The position numbers and the translations under genes were made by a program. From the NCBI GenBank assembly GCA_000004695.1, contig CH709148.1, forward strand, positions 1 through 11,086: a stretch of DNA of 11,086 nt, given 5' to 3'. Positions 1 through 11,086 of the stretch are shown in pieces. Numbering within the stretch: position 1 is the stretch's first letter; every line of letters starts with the position of its first letter. Source of the stretch: Dictyostelium discoideum. Lineage: Eukaryota. Under the pieces are notes generated by a model, which was given only the letters and a program-made list of their open reading frames with translations, had not been told where the DNA came from and ran no database searches.

Positions 1-363
1 ATATCATACTATATATGTGTAAAGCAGTTCATCTTCTTCATCGTTAATTAATTCTTTACTAGAATTTAATATCTTTGGACGATTGAATATGTTTACAGTA
101 TAGTTTTTATCTTGAACATTTGTTAACTCTGTTGGAGTATTAAATTCAATCTTCTGTGGTTTATACTTCATCTCTGATTCAACAGCTTTTGGAATTGGAA
201 CGGTTGTATCAGGAACTAGTTTTATACCATATGAGTCTTTGACGTATTCTTTAAGTTTGTTGATGTTTTTATGAACATCATGTTGCTGGCTTTGTTGATG
301 TAACTGTTTAACAATGTTTTGATTATAAAAAGAGTTAAGAGTATAAAGTGAATCTTTGTTCAC
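1..363 (-). CDS. pro (retropepsin) N-terminal region, partial; same frame as the NC ORF after a single TGA
   Basis: AVESEMKYKPQKIEFNTPTELTNVQDKNYTVNIFNRPKILNS is shared with ORF 9297-9755, which continues to the protease active-site DTG (in LILDTGSNV). 714 and 363 are both 0 mod 3. Confidence 0.6.
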
Positions 364-453
364 TGGGTAATCATTATCCTCAAGGTGATGATATTGTGAA
401 ATTTTATAATTTTTATTTAAAATCTTTGACTTGGACTCATCACCTTCATCGAG

Positions 454-714
454 TCATTGTTGCTTTTTGGCTGATGGACCTGGATTGGCTTTGGCATCGA
501 CCGGATCAATTCTACATGTAGATGTGGAGTGATTTGATTTACCACAATTGAGACAGTAGCCTTTGCTCTGACGGTAAACGATGAAACTGCTTCTTATCTT
601 TTTGAGGTCTACCTTAGAGTCTTTTCTTATTTCAGGTAATATTGCAGCTCTAATCTTATCAGCTTGAGCATCAAAGGAATTCCTGTTATTGAGAGTTATG
701 ATTTGGAGTAGCAT
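454..714 (-). CDS. gag nucleocapsid segment with CCHC zinc knuckle (CLNCGKSNHSTSTC = C-X2-C-X4-H-X4-C)
   Basis: The zinc-knuckle motif is read directly from the ORF translation. It is in a different frame from the capsid ORF and overlaps it over 686-714, implying a frameshift or degeneration. It ends with TGA at plus 454-456. Confidence 0.75.
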   Translation of the reverse strand: MLLQIITLNNRNSFDAQADKIRAAILPEIRKDSKVDLKKIRSSFIVYRQSKGYCLNCGKSNHSTSTCRIDPVDAKANPGPSAKKQQ

Positions 715-1246
715 GATTCTTTTTTAATGGAAACTTCTCATCATTATTCGATGCGGAATCGGAAGGTCTTCTTCTCGAGAACTTATCAGCATTGTTAAGA
801 ACCAACTCGGTGATGGTTTCACGACATTCGGTGATATCGGTTTGAGTGTTGAGTTTGATTGCAATATCAGTTTGTAACCAGTCTGGTACAACCATCTTTA
901 ACAAAGCAAGGATATTATTATCTAAAATTGATCTTAGATACTCTAATTGAACTTCAGCAGTACCATGGATGAGATACACCGGATTAATTACATTGTGGTA
1001 ACTCATAATGGCTTCGATGTTTTTTATAACATCTTGGGCTGAGTAGCAATTACGATGGTTAATAGCTTCGACTACTTTAGTGTTGGCAGCTTCGTAGTCA
1101 GTTTTGAATGGAACCAAAGTCTTGGATCTAAAGTTACGGTGTATAAGCTTCTTCCAATGTTTCACCTTCAATTTTATCGTTGTTCTTAACTGATTCATTG
1201 TGGGTAGGTTGAAGCAATTGAAATAATTCATTTGATGCAGCACCAT
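686..1246 (-). CDS. gag capsid-like central segment (same frame as 1274-1624, separated from it by one TGA codon)
   Basis: ORF track. Frame arithmetic: 1624 and 1246 are both 1 mod 3. A diverged copy lies at 4110-4563. Confidence 0.55.
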   Translation of the reverse strand: MVLHQMNYFNCFNLPTMNQLRTTIKLKVKHWKKLIHRNFRSKTLVPFKTDYEAANTKVVEAINHRNCYSAQDVIKNIEAIMSYHNVINPVYLIHGTAEVQLEYLRSILDNNILALLKMVVPDWLQTDIAIKLNTQTDITECRETITELVLNNADKFSRRRPSDSASNNDEKFPLKKNHATPNHNSQ

Positions 1247-1273
1247 TGTCCATAAGTGGTCTTCAAGGTTGGT

Positions 1274-1624
1274 TCAACACCATTCTGGGAGCAGTGGATG
1301 GTAGAAGAGATTCATGAGAGAGTGACAGCAGGTGGCAGCATTTTTTAAAGCGTCAATGGTTTTAGCTTCAATGGAATTGGTCTTTGATTTCTTTGGCACT
1401 TTCTCTCTGACTTCGACGTCGGATACATCAGTGCTTTCAGTTGAATAAATTTCATCATCAACTTCAGTGGGACGAAGAGTCTTTTTTGATTTTACTTGAA
1501 CAGTAATAGCATCATCGGAGGCGGTTGTCACTTCAGCGGCACGTTTGGCGGTGGAAGACACTTTGGCTTTACGGATGGCTTTCTTTGAAGGAGTAGTAGT
1601 TGATGACATGACTTTCACCAACAA
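1274..1624 (-). CDS. gag N-terminal segment (likely true start MSSTTTPSKK...), terminated by in-frame TGA
   Basis: ORF track. Basic/acidic low-complexity N-terminus typical of retroelement Gag. The stop at plus 1274-1276 is TGA, and the next ORF is in the same frame. Confidence 0.55.
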   Translation of the reverse strand: MLVKVMSSTTTPSKKAIRKAKVSSTAKRAAEVTTASDDAITVQVKSKKTLRPTEVDDEIYSTESTDVSDVEVREKVPKKSKTNSIEAKTIDALKNAATCCHSLMNLFYHPLLPEWC

Positions 1625-1640
1625 TTATATATAAAATTTA

Positions 1641-2300
1641 TTAAATATAATTTAATTTTATAATTTAATTTTTTAATTTAATTTACATAATTTAATTATA
1701 TAATTTAATTTAATTTATTTAATTTAATTTAATTTAATTTTTAATTAAATAATTAAATATAAGTATTAATATATGTTAACTGTTATTCCACTAATATATT
1801 TTTATTGTGGTGTCTTTATATTATTTAATTGATAATAAATATTATCTTAAATTATTTTAATTATAACAATGCATCAATATAACTGTTATTCCACTAATAA
1901 TTTATATTGTGGTGTCTTTATTTAACTGTTATTCCACTAATAATTTATATTGTGGTGTCTTTTTTAACTGTTATTCCACTAATAATTTATATTGTGGTGT
2001 CTTTATTTAACTGTTATTCCACTAATAATTTATATTGTGGTGTCTTTGTATTTGAGCATTATTATTAAATTAATTGATACAATCTTGTTTTATATTACTT
2101 TATAAAAGATGCATGTTTACAATGTGAGTAGGAAGTGTCGTTGTACCGCCTAAGCAGTACAGCGTTAATCTTGCAAACAGAAGGGCCATTGTAATGCATT
2201 TTTATTTTGTTTTAAATACTACTGTTATTCCTCTAATCTGAAGAGTCGACTTCTTCATCATGAGGTGTCATTGTATACGAAATATAAGGATTGTATCTAA
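1641..2300 (-). repeat. Putative LTR / upstream non-coding region of the Skipper-like element, internally repetitive
   Basis: Lies immediately 5' (on the minus strand) of the candidate PBS and gag start. Contains (AATTT)n-like low complexity at 1625-1780, a 43-bp tandem array, and diverged partial units at 1778-1822 and 2219-2280. Boundaries are not determined. Confidence 0.3.
1881..2051. repeat. Tandem array, 4 units of 42-43 bp (AACTGTTATTCCACTAATAATTTATATTGTGGTGTCTTTATTT)
   Basis: Direct reading: units start at 1881, 1924, 1966 and 2009 with only 1-3 substitutions. A diverged fifth unit lies at 1778-1822 and a half-unit relative at 2219-2280. Confidence 0.85.
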
Positions 2301-2952
2301 TTATTTGTTTTAATGTATTTGTTTTATGTTAAAATTAGAAAAAAAAAGTGTAAAAGTCACTCACACTAATCTTCAATCCATTGTTCAATCTTTAATCAAA
2401 CAGTCCAATCTTTAAAGTAATGTTTTTTAATATGAAGGATAGAAAGAGTGAAAGACTAATATAATAAAAGTAAACATACATAAAAGAGATAATTAAAAGT
2501 AAGGGCGTTATGAAAACTAAACCAAAAATCAGAATTTTTATTATTTTTTTTAAATTTTAATTTAATTTTATTTTATTTAATTTAATTTTTTATTGTTCAA
2601 CTGAAAAAATAAAAAATTAAAAAAATAAAAATTAAAATTTAATGAAATATTTTTACATGGAGATGCGCGAATTTGTTACGTTGTTGAGCTCATACTAACT
2701 TTAAATTAATTTAGTTTTGAGTCTCTAACAACTATAAAAAGAAACTAGGTTTCTAATTCAAACTCAGTAATAAATATATACAAATAATAAAAACACGATA
2801 GGGCTACTGTCATCAATTAAATATATGTGTACATTTATTTCTTAAATAATTAATTTTAATAATAATAAAATAAATAAATTCAGTAATAATAAAACAATAA
2901 TTAAATTAATAATATAAATAACCAAATTTTATTAAAAAATTTTTTTTAAAGA

Positions 2953-2960
2953 ATGTCAAC

Positions 2961-2996
<36 letters not shown>

Positions 2997-3192
2997 TAAT
3001 AATAATGAAGATATTGATAACGATGAATTTCAACAACAGGATAGTGAGGAACAACAACAACAACCACAGGTATCAACATTCAATGAACAGCAACGTCAAA
3101 TAAGGGAACAGCAGCAGGTAATAGATAAACAAAATCAACTTCTTCAACAACACATTCAATTAATAAATCAACAATCTAATAACAAAATATAA
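2953..3192 (+). CDS. Small N/Q-rich ORF (79 aa: 15xAsn run, poly-Gln, coiled-coil-like QQ repeats); possible short gene or first exon
   Basis: ORF track. AT-rich upstream region with TATAAAAAG at about 2735. Codon usage (aat, caa) is typical of Dictyostelium. GTAA-type donor-like site at 3118. No recognisable domain. Confidence 0.35.
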
Positions 3193-3195
3193 AGA

Positions 3196-3699
3196 GATAT
3201 GGGATGCAAATCAAGTATTTAAGCACTTATCTACTATCAAAGTCATCCCCAAGTACACATACACTGCACTATTAAACAAGACACTTGTACTCTGTAAAAT
3301 GTTTGGTTTAGCATATCATCAGACTTGGTGAAGTGGTCTTTCAAAGGTCTCATTATTACTCCTGACTCAATCAAAGGTCCAGTTATTAATTGTAATATCA
3401 ACACTCTCAAAGTCAGGCATTGATATTGTCAAGTTCAAATCTCACTCTACCCGTTTCGCTATGGCTTCTCTGCTGTTGTCCAATAACGTTCTGTTTCACG
3501 TTGTCAGAAGATGGATCGTTGGAAATAAAATGATACTGTAGAGACCTTCTCCGAAAAAAGAATCATTGGTGAAAAATCTGGTGGTTTCTTAAATACTGTC
3601 GTCCAAATTTCATAATATATATATATATATGATAATATAAATTAAAAATTTAATTTATTAAATTATATTTTATATTAAATATATATATATATTAGTCCC
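3196..3699 (+). other. Unassigned GC-richer non-coding stretch immediately inside an ITR copy; possibly the degenerate 3' internal end of a DIRS-1-like element
   Basis: Only short frameshifted ORF pieces on the plus strand (about 40 aa each). Position directly adjacent to the inner end of the 3700-4035 ITR copy. No direct homology visible within the window. Confidence 0.2.
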
Positions 3700-4035
3700 A
3701 TCCCACCCGCCCTTAGTCGGAATTCCATAAATCATATTGTTTTAGTTTTTAGTGCCACTATTTATACGTTTTTATTTTCTTAAAAATTTCGCAAAACTCA
3801 AAAAAATAAGTGTTTTCGACCCTTCACAAATTTCGTGCATAGTGTCGGTTCGGAATTTTTATGTTTTTGGACCTTGTGCAATGATAGCGTCATTGTGCCG
3901 GTTCGAAATTTTTACTTTTCTTTCGAAAATTTTTTATTCTTCGAATGTTCTAGAACATTCTAAAAAATTATCTTAAATATTTGGGAAATTCAAATAAATA
4001 AATGTTATTCATAATATATATATATAATTAATATA
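3700..4035 (-). mobile_element. DIRS-1-like inverted terminal repeat copy (right-ITR-type inner end), outer end at about 4035
   Basis: Reverse-complement match to 10006-10390 over about 300 bp and direct match to 9121-9344. Contains tandem nGAAnnTTCn heat-shock-element units. The outer end carries a (TA)n run. Confidence 0.6.
3937..3960. promoter_or_regulatory. Heat-shock element (TTCTTCGAATGTTCTAGAACATTC; 4-5 contiguous alternating GAA/TTC units) inside the ITR
   Basis: Direct reading. The same element is at 9325-9344 and 10067-10092. DIRS-1 ITRs are known heat-shock promoters. Confidence 0.65.
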
Positions 4036-4109
4036 AATTCGTTTTTCAATAATCAACAGTAGTCTCTGATTTCACGGGAAACTTCTCATCTTTTTCAGAT
4101 CTGAATCAC

Positions 4110-4563
4110 TTATTAATTCCGGCAATATTGCATCTATAATCTGATCAGCTTGAGCATTTAATGAATTCCTACAATGAGGGTTATTTGGAACATCATGATT
4201 CTTTTTCATTGGAAACTTCTCAGCAGTATTAGATGCCGAATCTGAAGGTCTTCTTCTTGATAACTTGTCAGCATTGTTAAGGACAGTCTGGTAAAACCAT
4301 CTTTAGCAAAGAAAGGTTACTACTATCTAAAATTGATCTTATATACTCTAATTAAACATCAGCTGTATCATGGATGAGATACACCTGATTAACTAACTCA
4401 TAATGGATTCGATGTTTTTTAGGACGAGTAGCAGTTACGATTGCTAATAGCGTCCACTTCTTTAATGTTGGCAGCTTCGTAGTTTTGACATGGACCAAAG
4501 TTTAAAGTTAAAGTGGATAAGCTTCTTCAAAGTTTTACCTTCAATTTTATCGTTGTTATTAAC
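4110..4563 (-). pseudogene. Degenerate, internally deleted copy of the Skipper-like gag capsid region
   Basis: Collinear DNA similarity to 610-1195 with several deletions and many substitutions; no intact ORF. Confidence 0.6.
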
Positions 4564-4786
4564 TTAAAAATCAAAAAGTTTAAACCTCGTCATCTGGATT
4601 GGCTAAAACAGGTTCAAATAATGGAGATGGTACCCAAAAACACCCATTTAGGTTGGGTTCTTAGTTATCGTTAGAGAATACAATTATTCGAGACGATCCA
4701 AATAATTAGTTTCATAAATTGGTCAAAATCAATTCATAATATAATAAAGGTAATGTGGGGAAAAAATCTATTTGATTTTTCCAAAA

Positions 4787-5069
4787 CTATACCATATTAA
4801 GATGGTAAGTGGAAGTAATGTTAGTCTAATCAAAAAGAGGTTGATTTCAAAAGAGATGAAGAACCACTTTCACAAAATCAAAGCCAAGGTTGAATTCCCG
4901 CTACTAGACGTCAAATAAGAGTTTGTTGAACAAATCAATATACAAGTTAACAATGAAATTCATAGCTTCTTTATAAAAGAATTGGATATCATTTATGTAC
5001 TTTTCGGTAATGAAATACTTAAGGACTCTATCATTAACCAAAAAGATAAAATAATCAAGTTGGATAATA
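4787..5069 (+). pseudogene. Skipper-like protease (pro) fragment on the plus strand, truncated at 5069 by the TIR element
   Basis: 4811-4867 is about 93% identical to the reverse complement of 9351-9407. The translation ...GSNVSLIKKRLISKEMKNH... then *EFVEQINIQVNNEIHSFFIKELDIIYVLFGNEILKDS contains a retropepsin hhG-x-(D/N)-x-L-like motif. One in-frame TAA at 4916 and a degenerate DTG region. Confidence 0.55.
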
Positions 5070-5815
5070 CACAGCTAAGAAAAATGCACCTTTAAAGCAA
5101 ATTTAAAGCAAAGTTGATTTAAATTGGATTTAAATTGAATTTAAAGCCGCGTTTAAAAAATTCATTTTTAAGGTAATTTTTAAGGTAATTTTTAAGATAT
5201 TTAAAAATGCCTTTAAAATTTGCTTTAAATTAAATTTTTAAGCAATTTTAAAGGTGATTTTAAAGGTAATTTTAAAGGTGATTTTTAAGGTAATTTTTAA
5301 GATAATTTTTAAGATATTTAAAAATACCTTTAAAATTTATTTTAAATTAATTTTAAATAGGATTTAAAGTAGATTTAAAGTAGATTTAAAGTGAATTTAA
5401 ATTTCCTTTAAACATAAATTTAAGGTTTTTAATAAAAAAGATCTAATTTTAGAACAAAAAAATGGGGATAAAATATTCTATCATTTTTAAATTTTTCATC
5501 AAAGCAATCAAATGGTGTAATGGTTGATGAGACTATCCTTTGATAGAGGGTCGGGGGATCGAATCCCTTTTGGTAATTTTTGAAAAATTAAAAAAAAAAT
5601 TTAAAAAATTTATCCGTTAAATAACGGCTTCGAACTCAGGACCTCGCTTTTAAAGCGATTAAAAAGGTAATTTTAAAGGTAATTTTAAAGGTAATTTTAA
5701 AGTAACCTTAAAAATTACCTTTAAAATTACCTTTAAAATTGCTTTAATTCAGGACTTTAAAGCAAATTTAAATTTAATTTAAAGCGAATTTAAAGGTGGT
5801 TTTTTCTTCGCTGTG
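5070..5815 (+). mobile_element. Unclassified non-autonomous TIR element, copy A (746 bp), with subterminal GGTAATTTTAAA / ATTTAAAG repeats and a central tRNA-like module
   Basis: Terminal inverted repeats: CACAGCTAAGAAAAATGCACCTTTAAAG versus the reverse complement of the end, CACAGCGAAGAAAAAACCACCTTTAAAT. A 97-98% identical second copy at 6852-7610 has different flanks. The flanking dinucleotide TA is found on both sides. Confidence 0.5.
5505..5575 (+). other. tRNA-related pol III promoter-like module (box A TGGTGTAATGG at 5513-5523; box B GGGATCGAATCCC at 5555-5567); pseudo-tRNA, not foldable as a canonical cloverleaf
   Basis: Box A matches 9/11 and box B 10/11 of the consensus (TRGCNNAGTGG / GGTTCGANTCC), spaced about 43 bp apart. 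TGGTGTAATGGTT resembles the D-loop of Glu/Gln-type tRNAs. The acceptor and D stems do not pair. Confidence 0.3.
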
Positions 5816-5956
5816 TAGTTCGATCCAGAATAATTTTAAACAGTCAAATCAATTACATTGTAATGTAAAATCTCCATCAATTATTAATATTAATTAATAT
5901 TATCATTATATAGGGTATTATTATTATTAATATTATTTTAATATTTATAAAAAAGG

Positions 5957-6648
5957 CAACTAAATGACCGATTACTTTGAATCAATATCAATTATTGTTT
6001 GTAAATCACCAATAATTACACAATCATCCTCATCATCACTGAATGTGATGTATAAGTCATCAAGAAGCTCAATCATCAAACCTATAAAGCATTTGACCTC
6101 CTTTTGATCAAAAGGTGGTATATTATTGATGAGTTATACTTTCCCATTTTTGTAAGAATGAATTCTGATGATTCTTTATACTGATCATAGAGAAGCCAAA
6201 CGATGTGATTACTGAATACATGGATATCGCCACATTTTTTACAACTCTTGTTTCTATTTGAATATACTAATTTTGTCTGATACCAATCATATAAACAATT
6301 GAGTTAACACATATAAAGGTTTTATCTTCTTTGATATTGTTAAAATAACCCATCACACCATTGTACTGGTCTACATTCGAGATCAATTTACTCATCATAA
6401 ATGACCCTTTGGTGTCTTCAGATTTTGAAAGAATCACCACAAAGGCATTTTTTGGTTTGTGATGAGGAGGTTGTTGGGGACATAAATGATGAATGTGATG
6501 AAGTTGTTGAGGTAGTTGTTGAAGAGGATGTTGATATTGATGGTTTGGTTAGTGAAGATGTGGTAAATGTTGTTGTTGTGGTTTTTATTGTGGATTTCAA
6601 AAACTCTTCATTAATCAATTGGTTGTTTTCAACCAAAGGAATTAACAT
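5957..6648 (-). pseudogene. Degenerate minus-strand gene remnant: T/S-rich ORF (6648-6418) followed by frameshifted ORF pieces down to 5957
   Basis: ORF track 6418-6648 (M...TTTTTFTTSSLTKPSISTSSSTTTSTTSS...). Manual translation of 6417-5957 gives four contiguous open pieces in shifting frames (MMSKLISNVDQYNGVMGYF..., YIQIETRVVKNVAISMYSVITSF..., MIELLDDLYITFSDDEDDCVIIGDLQTIIDIDSK*). No domain recognised. Confidence 0.3.
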
Positions 6649-6680
6649 TTACAACTTCTTTTTATTCAATGTTTTTTGGA

Positions 6681-6717
6681 CAATAATAATGATAATAATT
6701 ATAATTATAATTATAAT

Positions 6718-6765
<48 letters not shown>

Positions 6766-6776
6766 TATTATTATTT
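6681..6776. repeat. (AAT/ATT)n microsatellite, about 30 units, preceded by (ATAATT)n
   Basis: Direct reading. It generates the poly-Ile run in the spurious plus-strand ORF 6401-6805. Confidence 0.9.
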
Positions 6777-6851
6777 ACCAAGTTTCAATCTCTTTTTATC
6801 TCTAATGTCTTTTTCTTCTTTTTCTTTTTCAATTTGTTTTCCAATTTGAAT

Positions 6852-7610
6852 CACAGCAAAGAAAAATGCACCTTTAAAGCAAATTTAAAGAAAAGTTGAT
6901 TTAAATTGGATTTAAATTGAATTTAAAGCCGCGTTTAAAAAATTCATTTTTAAGGTAATTTTTAAGGTAATTTTTAAGATATTTAAAAATGCCTTTAAAA
7001 TTTGCTTTAAAATAAATTTTTAAGCAATTTTAAAGGTGATTTTAAAGGTGATTTTAAAGGTGATTTTTAAGGTAATTTTTAAGATAATTTTTAAGATATT
7101 TAAAAATACCTTTAAAATTTATTTTAAATTAATTTTAAATAGGATTTAAAGTAGATTTAAAGTATATTTAAAGTGAATTTAAATTTCCTTTAAACATAAA
7201 TTTAAGGTTTTTAATAAAAAAGATCTAATTTTAGAACAAAAAAATGGGGATAAAATATTCTATCATTTTTAAATTTTTCATCAAAGCAATCAAATGGTTT
7301 AATGGTTGATGAGACTACCCTTTGATAGAGGGTCGGGGGATCGAATCCCTTTTGGTAATTTTTGAAAAATTAAAAAAAAAATTTTAAAAAATTTATCCGT
7401 TAAATAACGGCTTCGAACTCAGGACCTCGCTTTTAAAGCCATTAAAAAGGTAATTTTAAAGGTAATTTTAAAGGTAATTTTTAAGGTGATTTTAAAGTAA
7501 CCTTAAAAATTACCTTTAAAATTACCTTTAAAATTTTTTTAATTCAGGACTTTAAAGCAAATTTAAATTTAATTTAAAGCGAATTTAAAGGTGGTTTTTT
7601 CTTCGCTGTG
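6852..7610 (+). mobile_element. Unclassified non-autonomous TIR element, copy B (759 bp), direct orientation relative to copy A
   Basis: Collinear with 5070-5815. Differences are a few substitutions and one extra 13-bp subrepeat unit. TIRs are CACAGCAAAG...CTTCGCTGTG. The flanking dinucleotide AT is found on both sides. The tRNA-like module is at 7286-7356. Confidence 0.5.
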
Positions 7611-7619
7611 ATTTATCCT

Positions 7620-7925
7620 TGTCCAAAACATGTCTGCTACTGTTAACAATATTTAAGCCTCTAGTAGTTACTCTGCCTGAATCCTTTGATTTAAGAATGA
7701 AATCAATGGAGGATCAAATCAACAACATTTCCTTAGCCTTTACCATATTCATGAAAGAAACTATGTTCTCTTCAAATATGAACTCTCCTAGCCAACGTTC
7801 TCATGATGACTCTGACACCGAGAATGAAAAAAATAAAGAAAAAAGTAACAATGTCGATGTTCCAACTGACTATCAATTATCCTATTCCTTACTTGTTCAA
7901 GGTTTATTCGTCGAAAAAAGAATGT
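7620..7925 (+). pseudogene. 5' fragment of a DIRS-1-like ORF1, lacking its ITR and abutting TIR element copy B
   Basis: The translation ...ESFDLRMKSMEDQINNISLAFTIFMKETMFSSNMNSPSQRSHDDSDTENE...NNVDVPTDYQ is collinear with ORF 10436-10702. Homology ends at about 7925. Confidence 0.5.
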
Positions 7926-9039
7926 AAGAAAGAACACACAGGAATCGTCAGAGCATTCACTGACTATATTGACTTCAGAATACTTATAAATCCACCATTC
8001 TGAACGTCAATGGAAGCAATGAACTGATTCAGAATTGGTTGGTTTATCGTGCCTCTATCGGGATGTATCCCTAAGGCGAGATTAAAGAAACTGAACTGAA
8101 TGCCGCTAAAGCAAATTCATGCAGCTGATTTTAAAACACCGGTAATAGTGGAGATGGATACCAATCATATGATAAGGTTGATGAGGATGTTAATATAGAA
8201 GTGAAGACAACCTTAATATAACATATGTTAGAGTCAAGGAATACGATAAAGGAAAGAATAAATGAGGTCATTTTAAAATTATTGACGAAAGAGTAATCAA
8301 GAAGAGAAGGACAGAAGGTCATCAAAGTGATAATGAGGATAACAATAGCGATGATATCAGTGGCTACGACAGTGGATAAAAGAAGGTGCATCATATGGGC
8401 TTCTTTTGTGCTCATCTTCCTTCTCTTCTTCTGTCGAAGAGAAGCATTAAGCTCAGGCATCTCCTGGACTCCCTGTTCGAGATTCCACTTACAAGTGAAC
8501 TTCAATGAACATATAATCAATGCCTGTCTCAGCAAGATCTATGAGAGAGAATGGGAGACACAGTACCCCAGAGCATGAGAATTATTAATAAGCACGGAGA
8601 GAATTATTAATACCTTCCTCTTTCTCAGATTGGTTGTTATGAAGGGTTCAAGGTCCTACCTTATCATTTAGGACTTTGTTGGTGTCTTATCAATAAAAGA
8701 TATTGGATTTGGATGCATCAATACTATTCTCTTTAATATGGGTCCTTATTACTATGTTATGGACTTTTTCTACAATGAAAAGTATACTTTTCATTGTAGT
8801 AAAAGTCCAAGAAAAGTTTATGTCCTCTCCGACTGATGACGACAACAACATATCAAACGAGGTTATAGACAGTGGTTCAATCTCAGTAAGATAGGAGGAG
8901 GAGGAGACTGTAGGAAGAGGTGCCTTGAAAGTCTTGTTCAAGGAGGAATCGATTTTGAGAGCAAGACACGTAGACTAAACCAGTGAAGGGTACCTGAACG
9001 TTAAGTAATTAATATATGTCACATATTACAGAGGACAAT
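7926..9039. other. Unassigned GC-richer sequence with only short overlapping ORFs on both strands; probably a degenerate repeat-element interior
   Basis: No ORF over 134 aa, no recognisable motif, and a base composition unlike the AT-rich intergenic DNA here. The right end abuts the inner end of the ITR copy at 9040. Confidence 0.2.
8761..8808. repeat. 48-bp near-perfect palindrome (22-bp arms GGACTTTTTCTACAATGAAAAG / CTTTTCATTGTAGTAAAAGTCC, 4-nt TATA spacer, 1 mismatch)
   Basis: Direct reading. It explains the mirrored peptide WTF(S/T)TMKSILFIV in ORFs on both strands (8703-8894 plus, 8690-8941 minus). Confidence 0.85.
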
Positions 9040-9344
9040 TAATAAAGAGAAATAATTATTTGTATAAAATTTGTGTGTGTATCTTAAATATATAGGAAGA
9101 ATTCCCAAATAAAATAAATCAAATTGTTTTAGTTTTTAGTGTCACTATTTATACGTTTTTATTTTCTTAAAAATTTCGCAAACTCAAAAAAAAAAGTGTT
9201 TTCGACCCTTCACAATTTCGTGCATTGTGTCGGTTCGGAATTTTTATGTTTTTCGACCTTGCGCAATGATCGCGTCATTGTGCCGGTTCGAAATTTTTAC
9301 TTTTCTTTTGAAAATTTTTTTTTATTCTTCGAATGTTCTAGAAC
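9040..9344 (-). mobile_element. DIRS-1-like ITR copy (left-ITR-type inner end), truncated about 65 bp at the outer end where it joins the retrotransposon pro sequence
   Basis: Reverse-complement match to 10070-10385 and direct match to 3728-3958. Heat-shock element at 9325-9344. The junction reads GTTCTAGAAC|GTGGTTC. Confidence 0.6.
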
Positions 9345-9928
9345 GTGGTTCTTCATATCTTTTAAAATCAACCTCTTATTGATTAAACTAACATTACTTC
9401 CAGTATCGAGAATTAATTTGAATTGTTTTTCTTTGGAATGAGAGTTAATTATAATCTTGGGTTTATCCATGTTTTCTCTGTTTGGAACGATTAAACATTT
9501 GAGAGTCGGAATGAGAGCAGTATCACTTGTACCAGTACTATGTAATAATGAGATGATTGGTTTGTTTGTTTCTTTATCGAATTTAATTGTGTAAAGCAAT
9601 CCATCTTCTTCATCGTTAATTAATTCTTTACCAGAATTTAATATCTTTGGACGATTGAATATATTTACGGTATAGTTTTTATCTTGAACATTTGTTAACT
9701 CTGTTGGAGTATTAAATTCAATCTTCTGTGGTTTATACTTCATCTCTGATTCCACAGATTTTGGAATTGGAACGGTTGAACTAGTTTTATACCATATGAG
9801 TCTTTGACGTATTGTTTAAGTTTGTTGATGTTTTTATGAACATCTTGTTGCTGGCTTTGTTGATGTAACTGTTTAACAATGTTTTGATTATAAAAAGAGT
9901 TAAGAGTATAAAGTGAATCTTTGTTTAT
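9345..9928 (-). pseudogene. Second copy of the Skipper-like gag C-term / pro N-term, including the retropepsin active site (LILDTGSNVSLI); broken by an 8-bp deletion
   Basis: 9591-9928 matches 18-367. ORF 9297-9755 carries DTG. The deletion of TATCAGGA relative to copy 1 near 9770 shifts the frame. The final 15 residues of that ORF are read from ITR sequence, not from protease. Confidence 0.7.
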
Positions 9929-10040
9929 ATTATCATATATATATATATATATATATAATGAATAACATTTGAATTTCCCAATTTATATTATCATATATAT
10001 ATATATATATATATTATGAATAACATTTATTTATTTGAAT
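9929..10040. repeat. Junction with a tandemly duplicated ~50-bp ITR outer terminus (TATATTATCA(TA)nATGAATAACATTT...GAATTTCCCA appears twice)
   Basis: Direct reading; (TA)8-9 microsatellites are present in both units. Confidence 0.6.
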
Positions 10041-11086
10041 TTCCCAAATATTTAAGATAATTTTTTAGAATGTTCTAGAACATTCGAAGAATAAAAAATT
10101 TTCGAAAGAAAAGTAAAAATTTTGAACCGGCACAATGACGCGATAATTGCGCAAGGTCGAAAAACTGAAAAATTCCGAACCGACACTATGCACAAAGTTG
10201 TGAAGGGTCGAAAACTCTTATTTTTTTGAGTTTTGCGAAATTTTTAAGAAAATAAAAACGTATAAATAGTGGCACAAAAAACTAAAACAATTTGATTTAT
10301 TTTATTTGGGAATTCCTCCTATATATATTTAAGATACACACACACACAAATTTTATACAAATAATTATTTCTCTTTATTAATTTTTAATATTATTATTTT
10401 TCTCATATTATAATTTTAGATATCAACAATAAAATATGTCTACCACTGTTAATAATAATGATGCCTCTAGTAGTAGTACCTCTGCCTCTAATAGCGCTGA
10501 ATCCTTTGATTTAAGAATGAAATCAATGGAGGATCAAATCAACAACCTTTCTTTAGCCTTTACAAGATTCATGAAAGAACCTATGTTCTCATCTAATACC
10601 AATTCACGTAGCCAACCTTCTCATGATAACTCTGACACCGAGAATGAACAAAGTGATGATGAATCAAGTAACAATGTCGATGTTCCAACCGATTATCAAT
10701 AATCCGATACCTTACTTGGTCAGTACAAACATATGGTAAACAATCAAGGTTTACTCGTCGAAGAAGAATGTATCCTCAAGAAAGATGAGATATCCGAATT
10801 GAATAAAGTATTCAACTTTCCATCTAACTTCCAAGTGAATGTCGCTCCATTCGGTACACCTGAAGGTATTACTGTATCATCCAACGTCAAGAACAATGAT
10901 ACTGAATTGTTGATTGTTGAAAAGCGAATCAACGATAGCTTGAAACCTTTGCTTCTCATGTCAAGTATGTTATCATCTGATAGCTCTAATGTCGATGTAG
11001 AACTTATTAGTTACTTAACTCAGAGTGCAATCATCTTAGCTGTTAATGCTCAAGCATCGCTTAGTCGTGTCCGTCGTAACAACATC
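10006..11086 (+). mobile_element. Left end of a DIRS-1-like tyrosine-recombinase retroelement: left ITR (10006-10390) plus the start of ORF1, running off the window
   Basis: ITR with heat-shock element at 10067-10092. The ORF begins 45 bp after the ITR. Orientation is opposite to the other two ITR copies. Confidence 0.6.
10436..11086 (+). CDS. DIRS-1-like ORF1 (gag-like), open to the window end apart from one in-frame TAA at 10700-10702; possibly a pseudogene
   Basis: ORF track 10436-10702. The same frame stays open from 10703 to 11086 (...GLLVEEECILKKDEISELNKVFNFPSNFQVNVAPFGTPEGITVSS...). Relative to the 7620 copy there is a 24-bp in-frame insertion and TTA changed to TAA. Confidence 0.5.

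Follow-up and report, generated by a model that had tools for sequence, protein, structure and literature searches.

The DIRS order has DIRS-1 as its founding member. The centromeres of Dictyostelium discoideum are 171–361-kb clusters at the chromosome tips that are 86% repetitive and in which elements have been heavily fragmented by later insertions; their published composition is 48.8% DIRS, 19.4% DDT and 9.6% Skipper, with about 14% non-repeat DNA lying internally (PMC2665215). Both DIRS-1 and Skipper-1 co-localise with CenH3 according to the literature. We analysed a stretch of 11,086 nt from this species (positions 1 to 11,086 of the forward strand of contig CH709148.1, GenBank assembly GCA_000004695.1; hereafter the window) and conclude with high confidence that it is an interior segment of such a centromeric transposon cluster, a fossil of successive insertions, truncations and rearrangements rather than a functional unit. 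This kind of region is already known and was described by Glöckner and Heidel in 2009 (PMC2665215). Like the clusters described there, the window contains DIRS-1, Skipper and a probable DDT-type DNA transposon in mixed orientations and in fragments, its locus is near a chromosome tip, and some non-repeat DNA lies inside it; unlike them, it is 74–75% rather than 86% repeat and includes recognisable fragments of host-gene pseudogenes.

The window is AT-rich (15–39% GC per 500-nt window). Three protein searches, with conceptual translations of its gag–pro, ORF1/recombinase and unassigned parts as queries (ORF, open reading frame), returned 49, 81 and 5 matches, all from Dictyostelium and the majority from D. 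discoideum. Because all protein matches were to Dictyostelium and 9,079 nt of the window align without a mismatch to an assembly of D. discoideum, that species is the source organism. The matching locus, reached through gene model P0138, is on contig JBTAPE010000033.1 of assembly GCA_054883475.1 (positions 24,813–45,673; hereafter L007), where window positions 2008–11086 align to L007 17735–8658 with 1 gap. All window junctions recur in this second assembly, including the one between Skipper and DIRS with which the window starts, and therefore the architecture is real.

The mosaic would instead be an assembly artefact if reads of different repeat copies had been collapsed or joined, or if gaps had been patched with consensus sequence, and we regard this as very improbable. 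In its favour, some gaps in the published centromeres were bridged by transposon consensus sequence (PMC2665215), and 40 mismatches and several indels separate the initial 2 kb of the window (16–2007 versus L007 19503–17735) from the long-read assembly. Among the indels are one of 82 nt and three additional 43-bp repeats on the window side, all within a Skipper fragment that we call F1, and in places F1 is nearer to canonical Skipper than to the orthologous copy: positions 1631–1880 are 97.6% identical to a full-length Skipper in related locus L002 and 83% identical to L007. The discrepancy could stem from divergence between strains, from gene conversion, or from one of the assemblies having been patched with consensus sequence. 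However, the junctions across 2008–11086 are reproduced with 0 mismatches in the independent assembly, which also has the junction at the window start, so any artefact is limited at most to the interior of F1 and leaves the architecture unaffected.

By our map, Skipper-1 makes up 37% of the window, DIRS-1 24%, a short DNA transposon with terminal inverted repeats (the TIR element) 13.6%, host-gene fragments 12.9% and unassigned DNA 12.1%; automatic coverage by the three transposons came to 73.9%. DIRS-1 is present as four substantial fragments and two short terminal remnants. A preliminary description of this DNA had recognised the DIRS-1/Skipper mosaic correctly but had missed both the DNA-transposon class and the host-gene pseudogenes. 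Its statement that there was almost no unique sequence beyond one small ORF was wrong, given two host-gene fragments and approximately 1.3 kb of unassigned DNA (mainly 7927–9009). The centromeric repeat-cluster context that it proposed is upheld: the locus identical to the window is located on the 4.89-Mb contig JBTAPE010000033.1, approximately 33.5–44.3 kb from its end, and the published centromeres are mosaics at chromosome tips (PMC2665215).

The preliminary description had further placed the window at an array edge, where the cluster would meet unique sequence of the chromosome arm. The host-gene-derived, non-transposon sequence at 2732–3182 and 5877–6851 and a repeat content of merely 74% are what such a boundary might look like. 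In the orthologous contig, however, the DNA bordering the window, 8.66 kb on its right side and 20.8 kb on its left, consists entirely (100%) of DIRS-1, Skipper-1 and the TIR element; within a stretch of 40 kb the window is the part lowest in repeats and, since both flanks are fully repeat, it is interior to the cluster. The host-derived pieces are truncated pseudogene paralogues with stops and 75–82% identity, not intact arm genes, and the non-repeat share of the published centromeres is likewise internal (PMC2665215), leaving an edge with hardly any probability. Equally hard to credit is that the window belongs to a DIRS/Skipper island outside the functional centromeres, for instance the non-functional "inner" DIRS region found where the chromosome-2 duplication has its breakpoint. 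A 36-kb island of that kind, similar in composition, does exist in AX4 (PMC2665215). The identical locus, however, is 33–44 kb away from a contig end, and at 4.89 Mb this contig is close in length to chromosome 1 (4.92 Mb), whose centromere is at the tip; the window also contains no TRE element, whereas TRE marks the inner chromosome-2 island.

Several observations weigh against assigning the window to the interior of a centromeric cluster. A quarter of it is non-transposon, and a 1.08-kb block within that part, which we call block Y, matches no identified element. The proportions of the main elements depart from the centromere average, with Skipper at 37% versus 9.6% and DIRS at 24% versus 48.8% (PMC2665215). 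The location is inferred through the identical locus in another assembly, and the window departs from that assembly over its first 2 kb, as described above. The name DDT is applied to the TIR element provisionally, from its features.

The segments of the window that combine an inverted terminal repeat (ITR) with ORF1 are DIRS-1, a tyrosine-recombinase retrotransposon. Pfam searches with ten window ORFs yielded nothing above threshold, so families were assigned through full-length relatives. Those of the ITR–ORF1 segments carry reverse transcriptase (RT), RNase H and tyrosine recombinase, in agreement with the DIRS-like affiliation first suggested; in the full-length relative P0052 these are RVT_1 (6e-28), RT_RNaseH and Phage_integrase (3e-9). 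The window itself holds the C-terminus of the tyrosine recombinase only (3183–3620). We found the three ITR copies with heat-shock elements, in two orientations, that had been reported previously, at 3727–4037, 9010–9344 and 9975–10383. These repeats are inverted, with 3727–4026 being 96% reverse-complementary to 10002–10300 and 9037–9344 being 92.7% reverse-complementary to 10072–10383. The heat-shock element GAANNTTCNNGAA and its complement occur five times in the window versus 0.29 expected, solely within the three ITRs; promoter activity and heat-shock-induced transcription of the DIRS-1 ITR are known from the literature. The two ORF1-like fragments reported earlier are likewise present, at 7625–7926 (84% identical to DIRS-1) and 10436–11086 (98%).

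The youngest-looking of the DIRS-1 pieces, D4 (9975–11086, plus strand), is the 5' end of a copy that is 98.1% identical to full-length DIRS-1 and comprises the left ITR (9975–10383, with its heat-shock element at 10068–10085), the 5' untranslated region (UTR) and ORF1 from 10436, with one in-frame stop at 10700. Its ORF1 product (10436–11086) is 98% identical to the N-terminus of 1275-aa D. discoideum DIRS models with RVT_1, RNase H and Phage_integrase domains, and D4 runs out of the window as a near-full-length element whose continuation in L007 is a 1146-aa gene model with RT and integrase. D1 (3183–4037, plus strand) is the opposite, 3' end of a DIRS-1 copy and is 96% identical to DIRS-1 reference positions 3747–3955 and 4150–4804, with an internal deletion of approximately 194 nt. 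It encodes a match to residues 1069–1245 of the 1275-aa DIRS models, followed by the internal complementary region (approximately 3609–3694) and the right ITR (3727–4037, heat-shock element at 3943–3960). The internal complementary region is just upstream of the right ITR and is complementary to the ITR termini: 3609–3694 can be aligned to the outer ITR terminus (9932–10020) in either orientation, with 76–81% identity.

The other DIRS-1 fragments are shorter. D2 (7611–7926, plus strand) is an old 5' fragment of ORF1 that is 83–85% identical to DIRS-1 ORF1 across 7625–7899; it has no ITR or 5' UTR, contains stops and a 24-nt deletion, and its homology ends at approximately 7926. D3 (9010–9344, minus strand) comprises a left ITR and 5' UTR and is 92–93% identical to the left ITR of D4 (10383–10072; DIRS reference 404–92). 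It lacks the outer 70 nt or so, being cut just past the heat-shock element (9331–9343), and at the other side its homology continues into the left-specific 5' UTR (9010–9080 versus 10340–10410). Positions 1–15, at the window start, are AT-rich and form a junction: in the orthologous locus another DIRS-1 copy, on the minus strand and to the left of the window, has its left ITR beginning here. Window 1–662 aligns with L004 3139–2478, where the DIRS-1 ITR starts at 3124, and the Skipper alignment starts at window position 16.

We also observed, by reading the sequence, that the outer terminus of a DIRS-1 ITR is partly copied once more at 9926–9974 (plus strand), as a direct repeat of approximately 50 nt ahead of the real terminus of D4; canonical ITR copies start at 9975–9981. 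This extra stretch may have been left by a DIRS end that occupied the site earlier. It is the only hint of one DIRS-1 inserted in another: the "nested" arrangement described earlier has no clear case within the window, where DIRS-1 fragments adjoin Skipper, a host-gene fragment or unassigned DNA. Overall, the window resembles DIRS-1 in its heat-shock ITRs, its 98% identical ORF1, its recombinase C-terminus and the position of its internal complementary region. It is unlike DIRS-1 in that no complete copy lies inside it, D2 is 84% identical and lacks an ITR, D3 is truncated at both ends and the extra terminus remnant is present.

The gag–pro segments of the window are Skipper-1, a Ty3/gypsy long terminal repeat (LTR) retrotransposon. 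Here too the family first proposed was borne out by full-length relatives, which carry RT, RNase H, Integrase_H2C2 and rve domains between TG..CA LTRs. One of these relatives is the copy in L002, a full-length Skipper with two direct LTRs ending in TG..CA, a 382-aa gag and a 1376-aa pol in which the domains are ordered RVT_1, RT_RNaseH, Integrase_H2C2, rve. As in the initial account, we found four fragments in both orientations that differ in their deletions: F1 (16–2731, minus strand), F2 (4081–4564, minus), F3 (4783–5876, plus) and F4 (9341–9925, minus). They cover Skipper positions 1–2734, 1561–2160, approximately 2893–3238 and 2390–2981, respectively, and the overlaps among these coordinates require at least three source copies.

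F1 is the 5' 2.7 kb of a Skipper-1 copy, with the 5' LTR, the leader, a frameshifted gag and the start of pro. It forms a single contiguous alignment (16–2730) to Skipper in L001 (96.3% identity) and in L002, and segments across 16–2348 are 97.6–100% identical to canonical Skipper. A three-way alignment with both L002 LTRs places the 5' LTR, the only Skipper LTR of the window, at 2349–2731 on the minus strand (383 nt, TGTTAG...TTTACA). The gag region (approximately 1624–454) is frameshifted into three ORFs, with best gag protein matches at E=4e-196, and retains the CX2CX4HX4C zinc knuckle as CLNCGKSNHSTSTC in ORF 454..714, where the Pfam match is weak (E=0.04). Within the leader is a 43-bp tandem array (1880–2047) whose copy number varies among copies and assemblies, the array of the window having 3.9 units and being 129 nt longer than that of the orthologous copy. 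We rejected the possibility that the repeat-bearing stretch 1760–2300 is a separate or foreign element, as it belongs to the ordinary Skipper leader and adjoins the LTR and gag without a break.

The remaining Skipper pieces range from decayed to nearly intact. F2 is an old gag fragment with 79% nucleotide identity to the gag regions in L001, L002 and L004, aligned as two blocks with a deletion of approximately 77 nt between them. An assignment of F2 to Skipper-2 or DGLT-P was not supported: its best protein matches are to residues 139–338 of the canonical Skipper-1 Gag. F3 is a pro region split into 4783–5069 and 5816–5876 by a copy of the TIR element; 4810–5069 is 93% identical to L002 11773–12030 and, directly past the insertion, 5831–5876 is 91% identical to L002 12046–12091. 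F4 comprises the gag end and pro, is 97% identical to L001 and L002, and carries the protease active-site motif LILDTGS in ORF 9297..9755. The window thus resembles Skipper-1 in its 383-bp TG..CA LTR, its gag with a CCHC knuckle and a separate pro region with DTG, and F1 and F4 are 97–100% identical to a full-length copy. It departs from Skipper-1 in representing the 5' 3.2 kb alone, with no pol beyond pro and so none of the RT, RNase H, integrase and chromodomain part, and further in the frameshifted gag, the 79% relic F2 and the difference between assemblies in leader repeat number.

The preliminary description had noted two further elements inserted among the retrotransposon fragments. Both exist, as copies of a single 746–759-bp TIR element, although insertion into a retrotransposon can be demonstrated for one of them only. 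T1 (5070–5815, plus strand, 746 bp) is flanked by the target-site duplication (TSD) TA; that Skipper sequence resumes past it shows a clean insertion into F3. T2 (6852–7610, same orientation, 759 bp) has the TSD AT, and therefore the pseudogene to its left and the ORF1 relic to its right were already adjacent when T2 inserted. The two are 97% identical to each other, and copies of 87.6–98% identity occur in L001, L002 and L007. The termini are CACAGC...GCTGTG, with CACAGCNAAGAAAAA..CACCTTTAAA matching across approximately 27 nt, and both copies contain arrays of the 12-nt repeat TTTAAAGGTAAT. That 5070–7610 might form a single element, LTR-type or composite, was rejected, since both repeats possess separate TIRs and a separate 2-bp TSD, Skipper resumes after T1, and a pair of copies in L001 flanks unrelated Skipper RT.

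On insertion the TIR element duplicates 2 bp of its target, and the duplicated sequence varies. We compared six independent full-length copies (window 5070–5815 and 6852–7610, L001 11479–12168 and 13144–13915, L002 6869–7615, L007 2852–3599), and the 2-nt flanks were identical in all six, as TA, AT, AC, AA, TA and TA; a match by chance has a probability of 0.089 per copy, or approximately 5e-7 for all six. Together with the CACAG termini, this duplication is reminiscent of CMC (CACTA/Mirage/Chapaev)-type transposons, although the transposases of Dictyostelium DNA transposons are said to be unlike those of any known family. The element is probably a non-autonomous, cut-and-paste, DDT-type transposon, an analogy drawn because DDT elements make up about 20% of D. 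discoideum centromeres and DDT-B has been reported to carry an A/B-box motif, one that attracts TRE5-A integration (PMC9012585). The likeness to the DDT family of putative DNA transposons (DDT-A, -B and -S) lies in its terminal inverted repeats, in its enrichment within centromeric clusters and in its tRNA-like A/B-box-like motifs (as in DDT-B; PMC9012585); unlike that family it is short, at approximately 750 bp, and non-coding. We also observed that the full-length Skipper of L002 is inserted in sequence composed of the TIR element's 12-mer repeats (L002 8699–8853 and 15870–16110), so Skipper and DDT-type elements interrupt each other both ways.

The A-box/B-box-like pair TGGTGTAATGG ... GGGATCGAATCC is at 5512–5572 on the plus strand of T1, with a second copy at 7295–7355 in T2, and a further B-box-like motif, GAGTTCGAAGCC, is on the opposite strand at 5610–5645, with its second copy at 7395–7430. 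ARAGORN called no tRNA in the window and Rfam found none. In both TIR copies the inverted 12-mer arrays form a near-perfect hairpin of 36–46 bp (5664–5745, z −11.8; 7441–7543, z −9.5), which could be a Dicer substrate. Rfam returned only sub-threshold matches to miRNA models, from the hairpins of the TIR element and of block Y, and none of the published D. discoideum miRNAs (PMC4894637, Table 2) was found in the window with up to 4 mismatches, giving no link to thug-S or to the known miRNAs.

We detected two fragments of host genes embedded among the transposons. The first (2732–3182, plus strand) is a truncated paralogue consisting of approximately 230 nt of upstream sequence and the first 77 codons, cut by D1 at 3183. 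Positions 2731–3176 are 75.5% identical at the nucleotide level to L006 5768–6206, which is the promoter and first 200 nt or so of the 478-aa gene P0133; that gene is 1.8 Mb into its contig, among ordinary genes (Tgr, Arf). Judged by this alignment, the small ORF that had been singled out as unique sequence (2953–3192) is the truncated N-terminus of a P0133-like paralogue. The second (5877–6851, minus strand) is a 5'-truncated, P0131-like pseudogene with stops and frameshifts that also includes the 3' flank of the gene; 5880–6852 on the minus strand has 58% amino acid identity to the 391-aa P0131 (E=6.5e-69) and 79–82% nucleotide identity to L005 7480–6359.

The rest of the window is unassigned, and across approximately 130 kb of related loci we found no element matching 7927–9009, 4565–4782 or 4038–4080. 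The 218 nt at 4565–4782 have no significant blastn or tblastx match; their +0 translation bears a weak resemblance, by eye, to the pro region, and the stretch may be a strongly decayed Skipper protease region continuous with F3. Block Y (7927–9009, 1.08 kb) has no intact ORF and contains an island of approximately 100 nt (8480–8581) and a hairpin (8760–8809). Searches of Y against L001–L006 and the 135 retrieved proteins gave no blastn, tblastx or tblastn match beyond the 31 codons of the island. Those codons (8480–8572) are 84% identical to P0139, a 482-aa dictyostelid-like protein from a Logan assembly (SRR13208906) with weak matches to TerL PHROGs and a terminase-like ATPase region. The hairpin is near-perfect over 23 bp (z −7.6), and several miRNA covariance models matched it below threshold. 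We rejected the possibility that Y is a diverged DIRS-1 interior, since blastn (word size 7), tblastx and tblastn revealed no resemblance to DIRS or Skipper proteins or loci.

These features allow a bolder proposal, which we consider unlikely: the TIR element, with its hairpins and A/B-box-like motifs, would yield transcripts, perhaps made by Pol III, that are diced to small RNAs helping to nucleate or maintain centromeric heterochromatin and, separately, Y would be the relic of a centromere-resident, terminase-encoding virus-like element. Returning to the window as a fossil of a centromeric cluster, the element copies fall into classes of identity, with F2 and D2 at 79–84%, D3 and F3 at 92–93%, and D1, F1, F4, D4 and the TIR copies at 96–100%. 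This spread among copies suggests repeated waves of insertion, in which Skipper-1, DIRS-1 and the TIR element would have inserted successively and then decayed. From what is described in the literature, Skipper-1 may have accumulated here through targeting of its chromodomain to heterochromatin, or through selection, and DIRS-1 through recombination of circular cDNA into resident copies; the region itself would be bound by CenH3 and H3K9-methylated.

We also observed that several of the NCBI gene models in new D. discoideum assemblies are annotation artefacts, chimeras spliced across transposon junctions. Examples are L007 10001–10861 (P0138), L003 10001–12317 (P0005) and P0135, and the chimeras fuse Skipper protease with block Y over an intervening DIRS ITR, Skipper gag with DIRS recombinase, or DIRS recombinase with the N-terminus of a host gene.

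The value of the window is mostly one of annotation, as a textbook sample of the DIRS-1/Skipper/DDT mosaic of Dictyostelium centromeres described in 2009. As by-products, its analysis provides an exact element-by-element map of the locus, together with evidence that the small TIR element consistently duplicates 2 bp of its target, that the cluster has host-gene fragments embedded in it and that several NCBI D. discoideum gene models are chimeric at transposon junctions.

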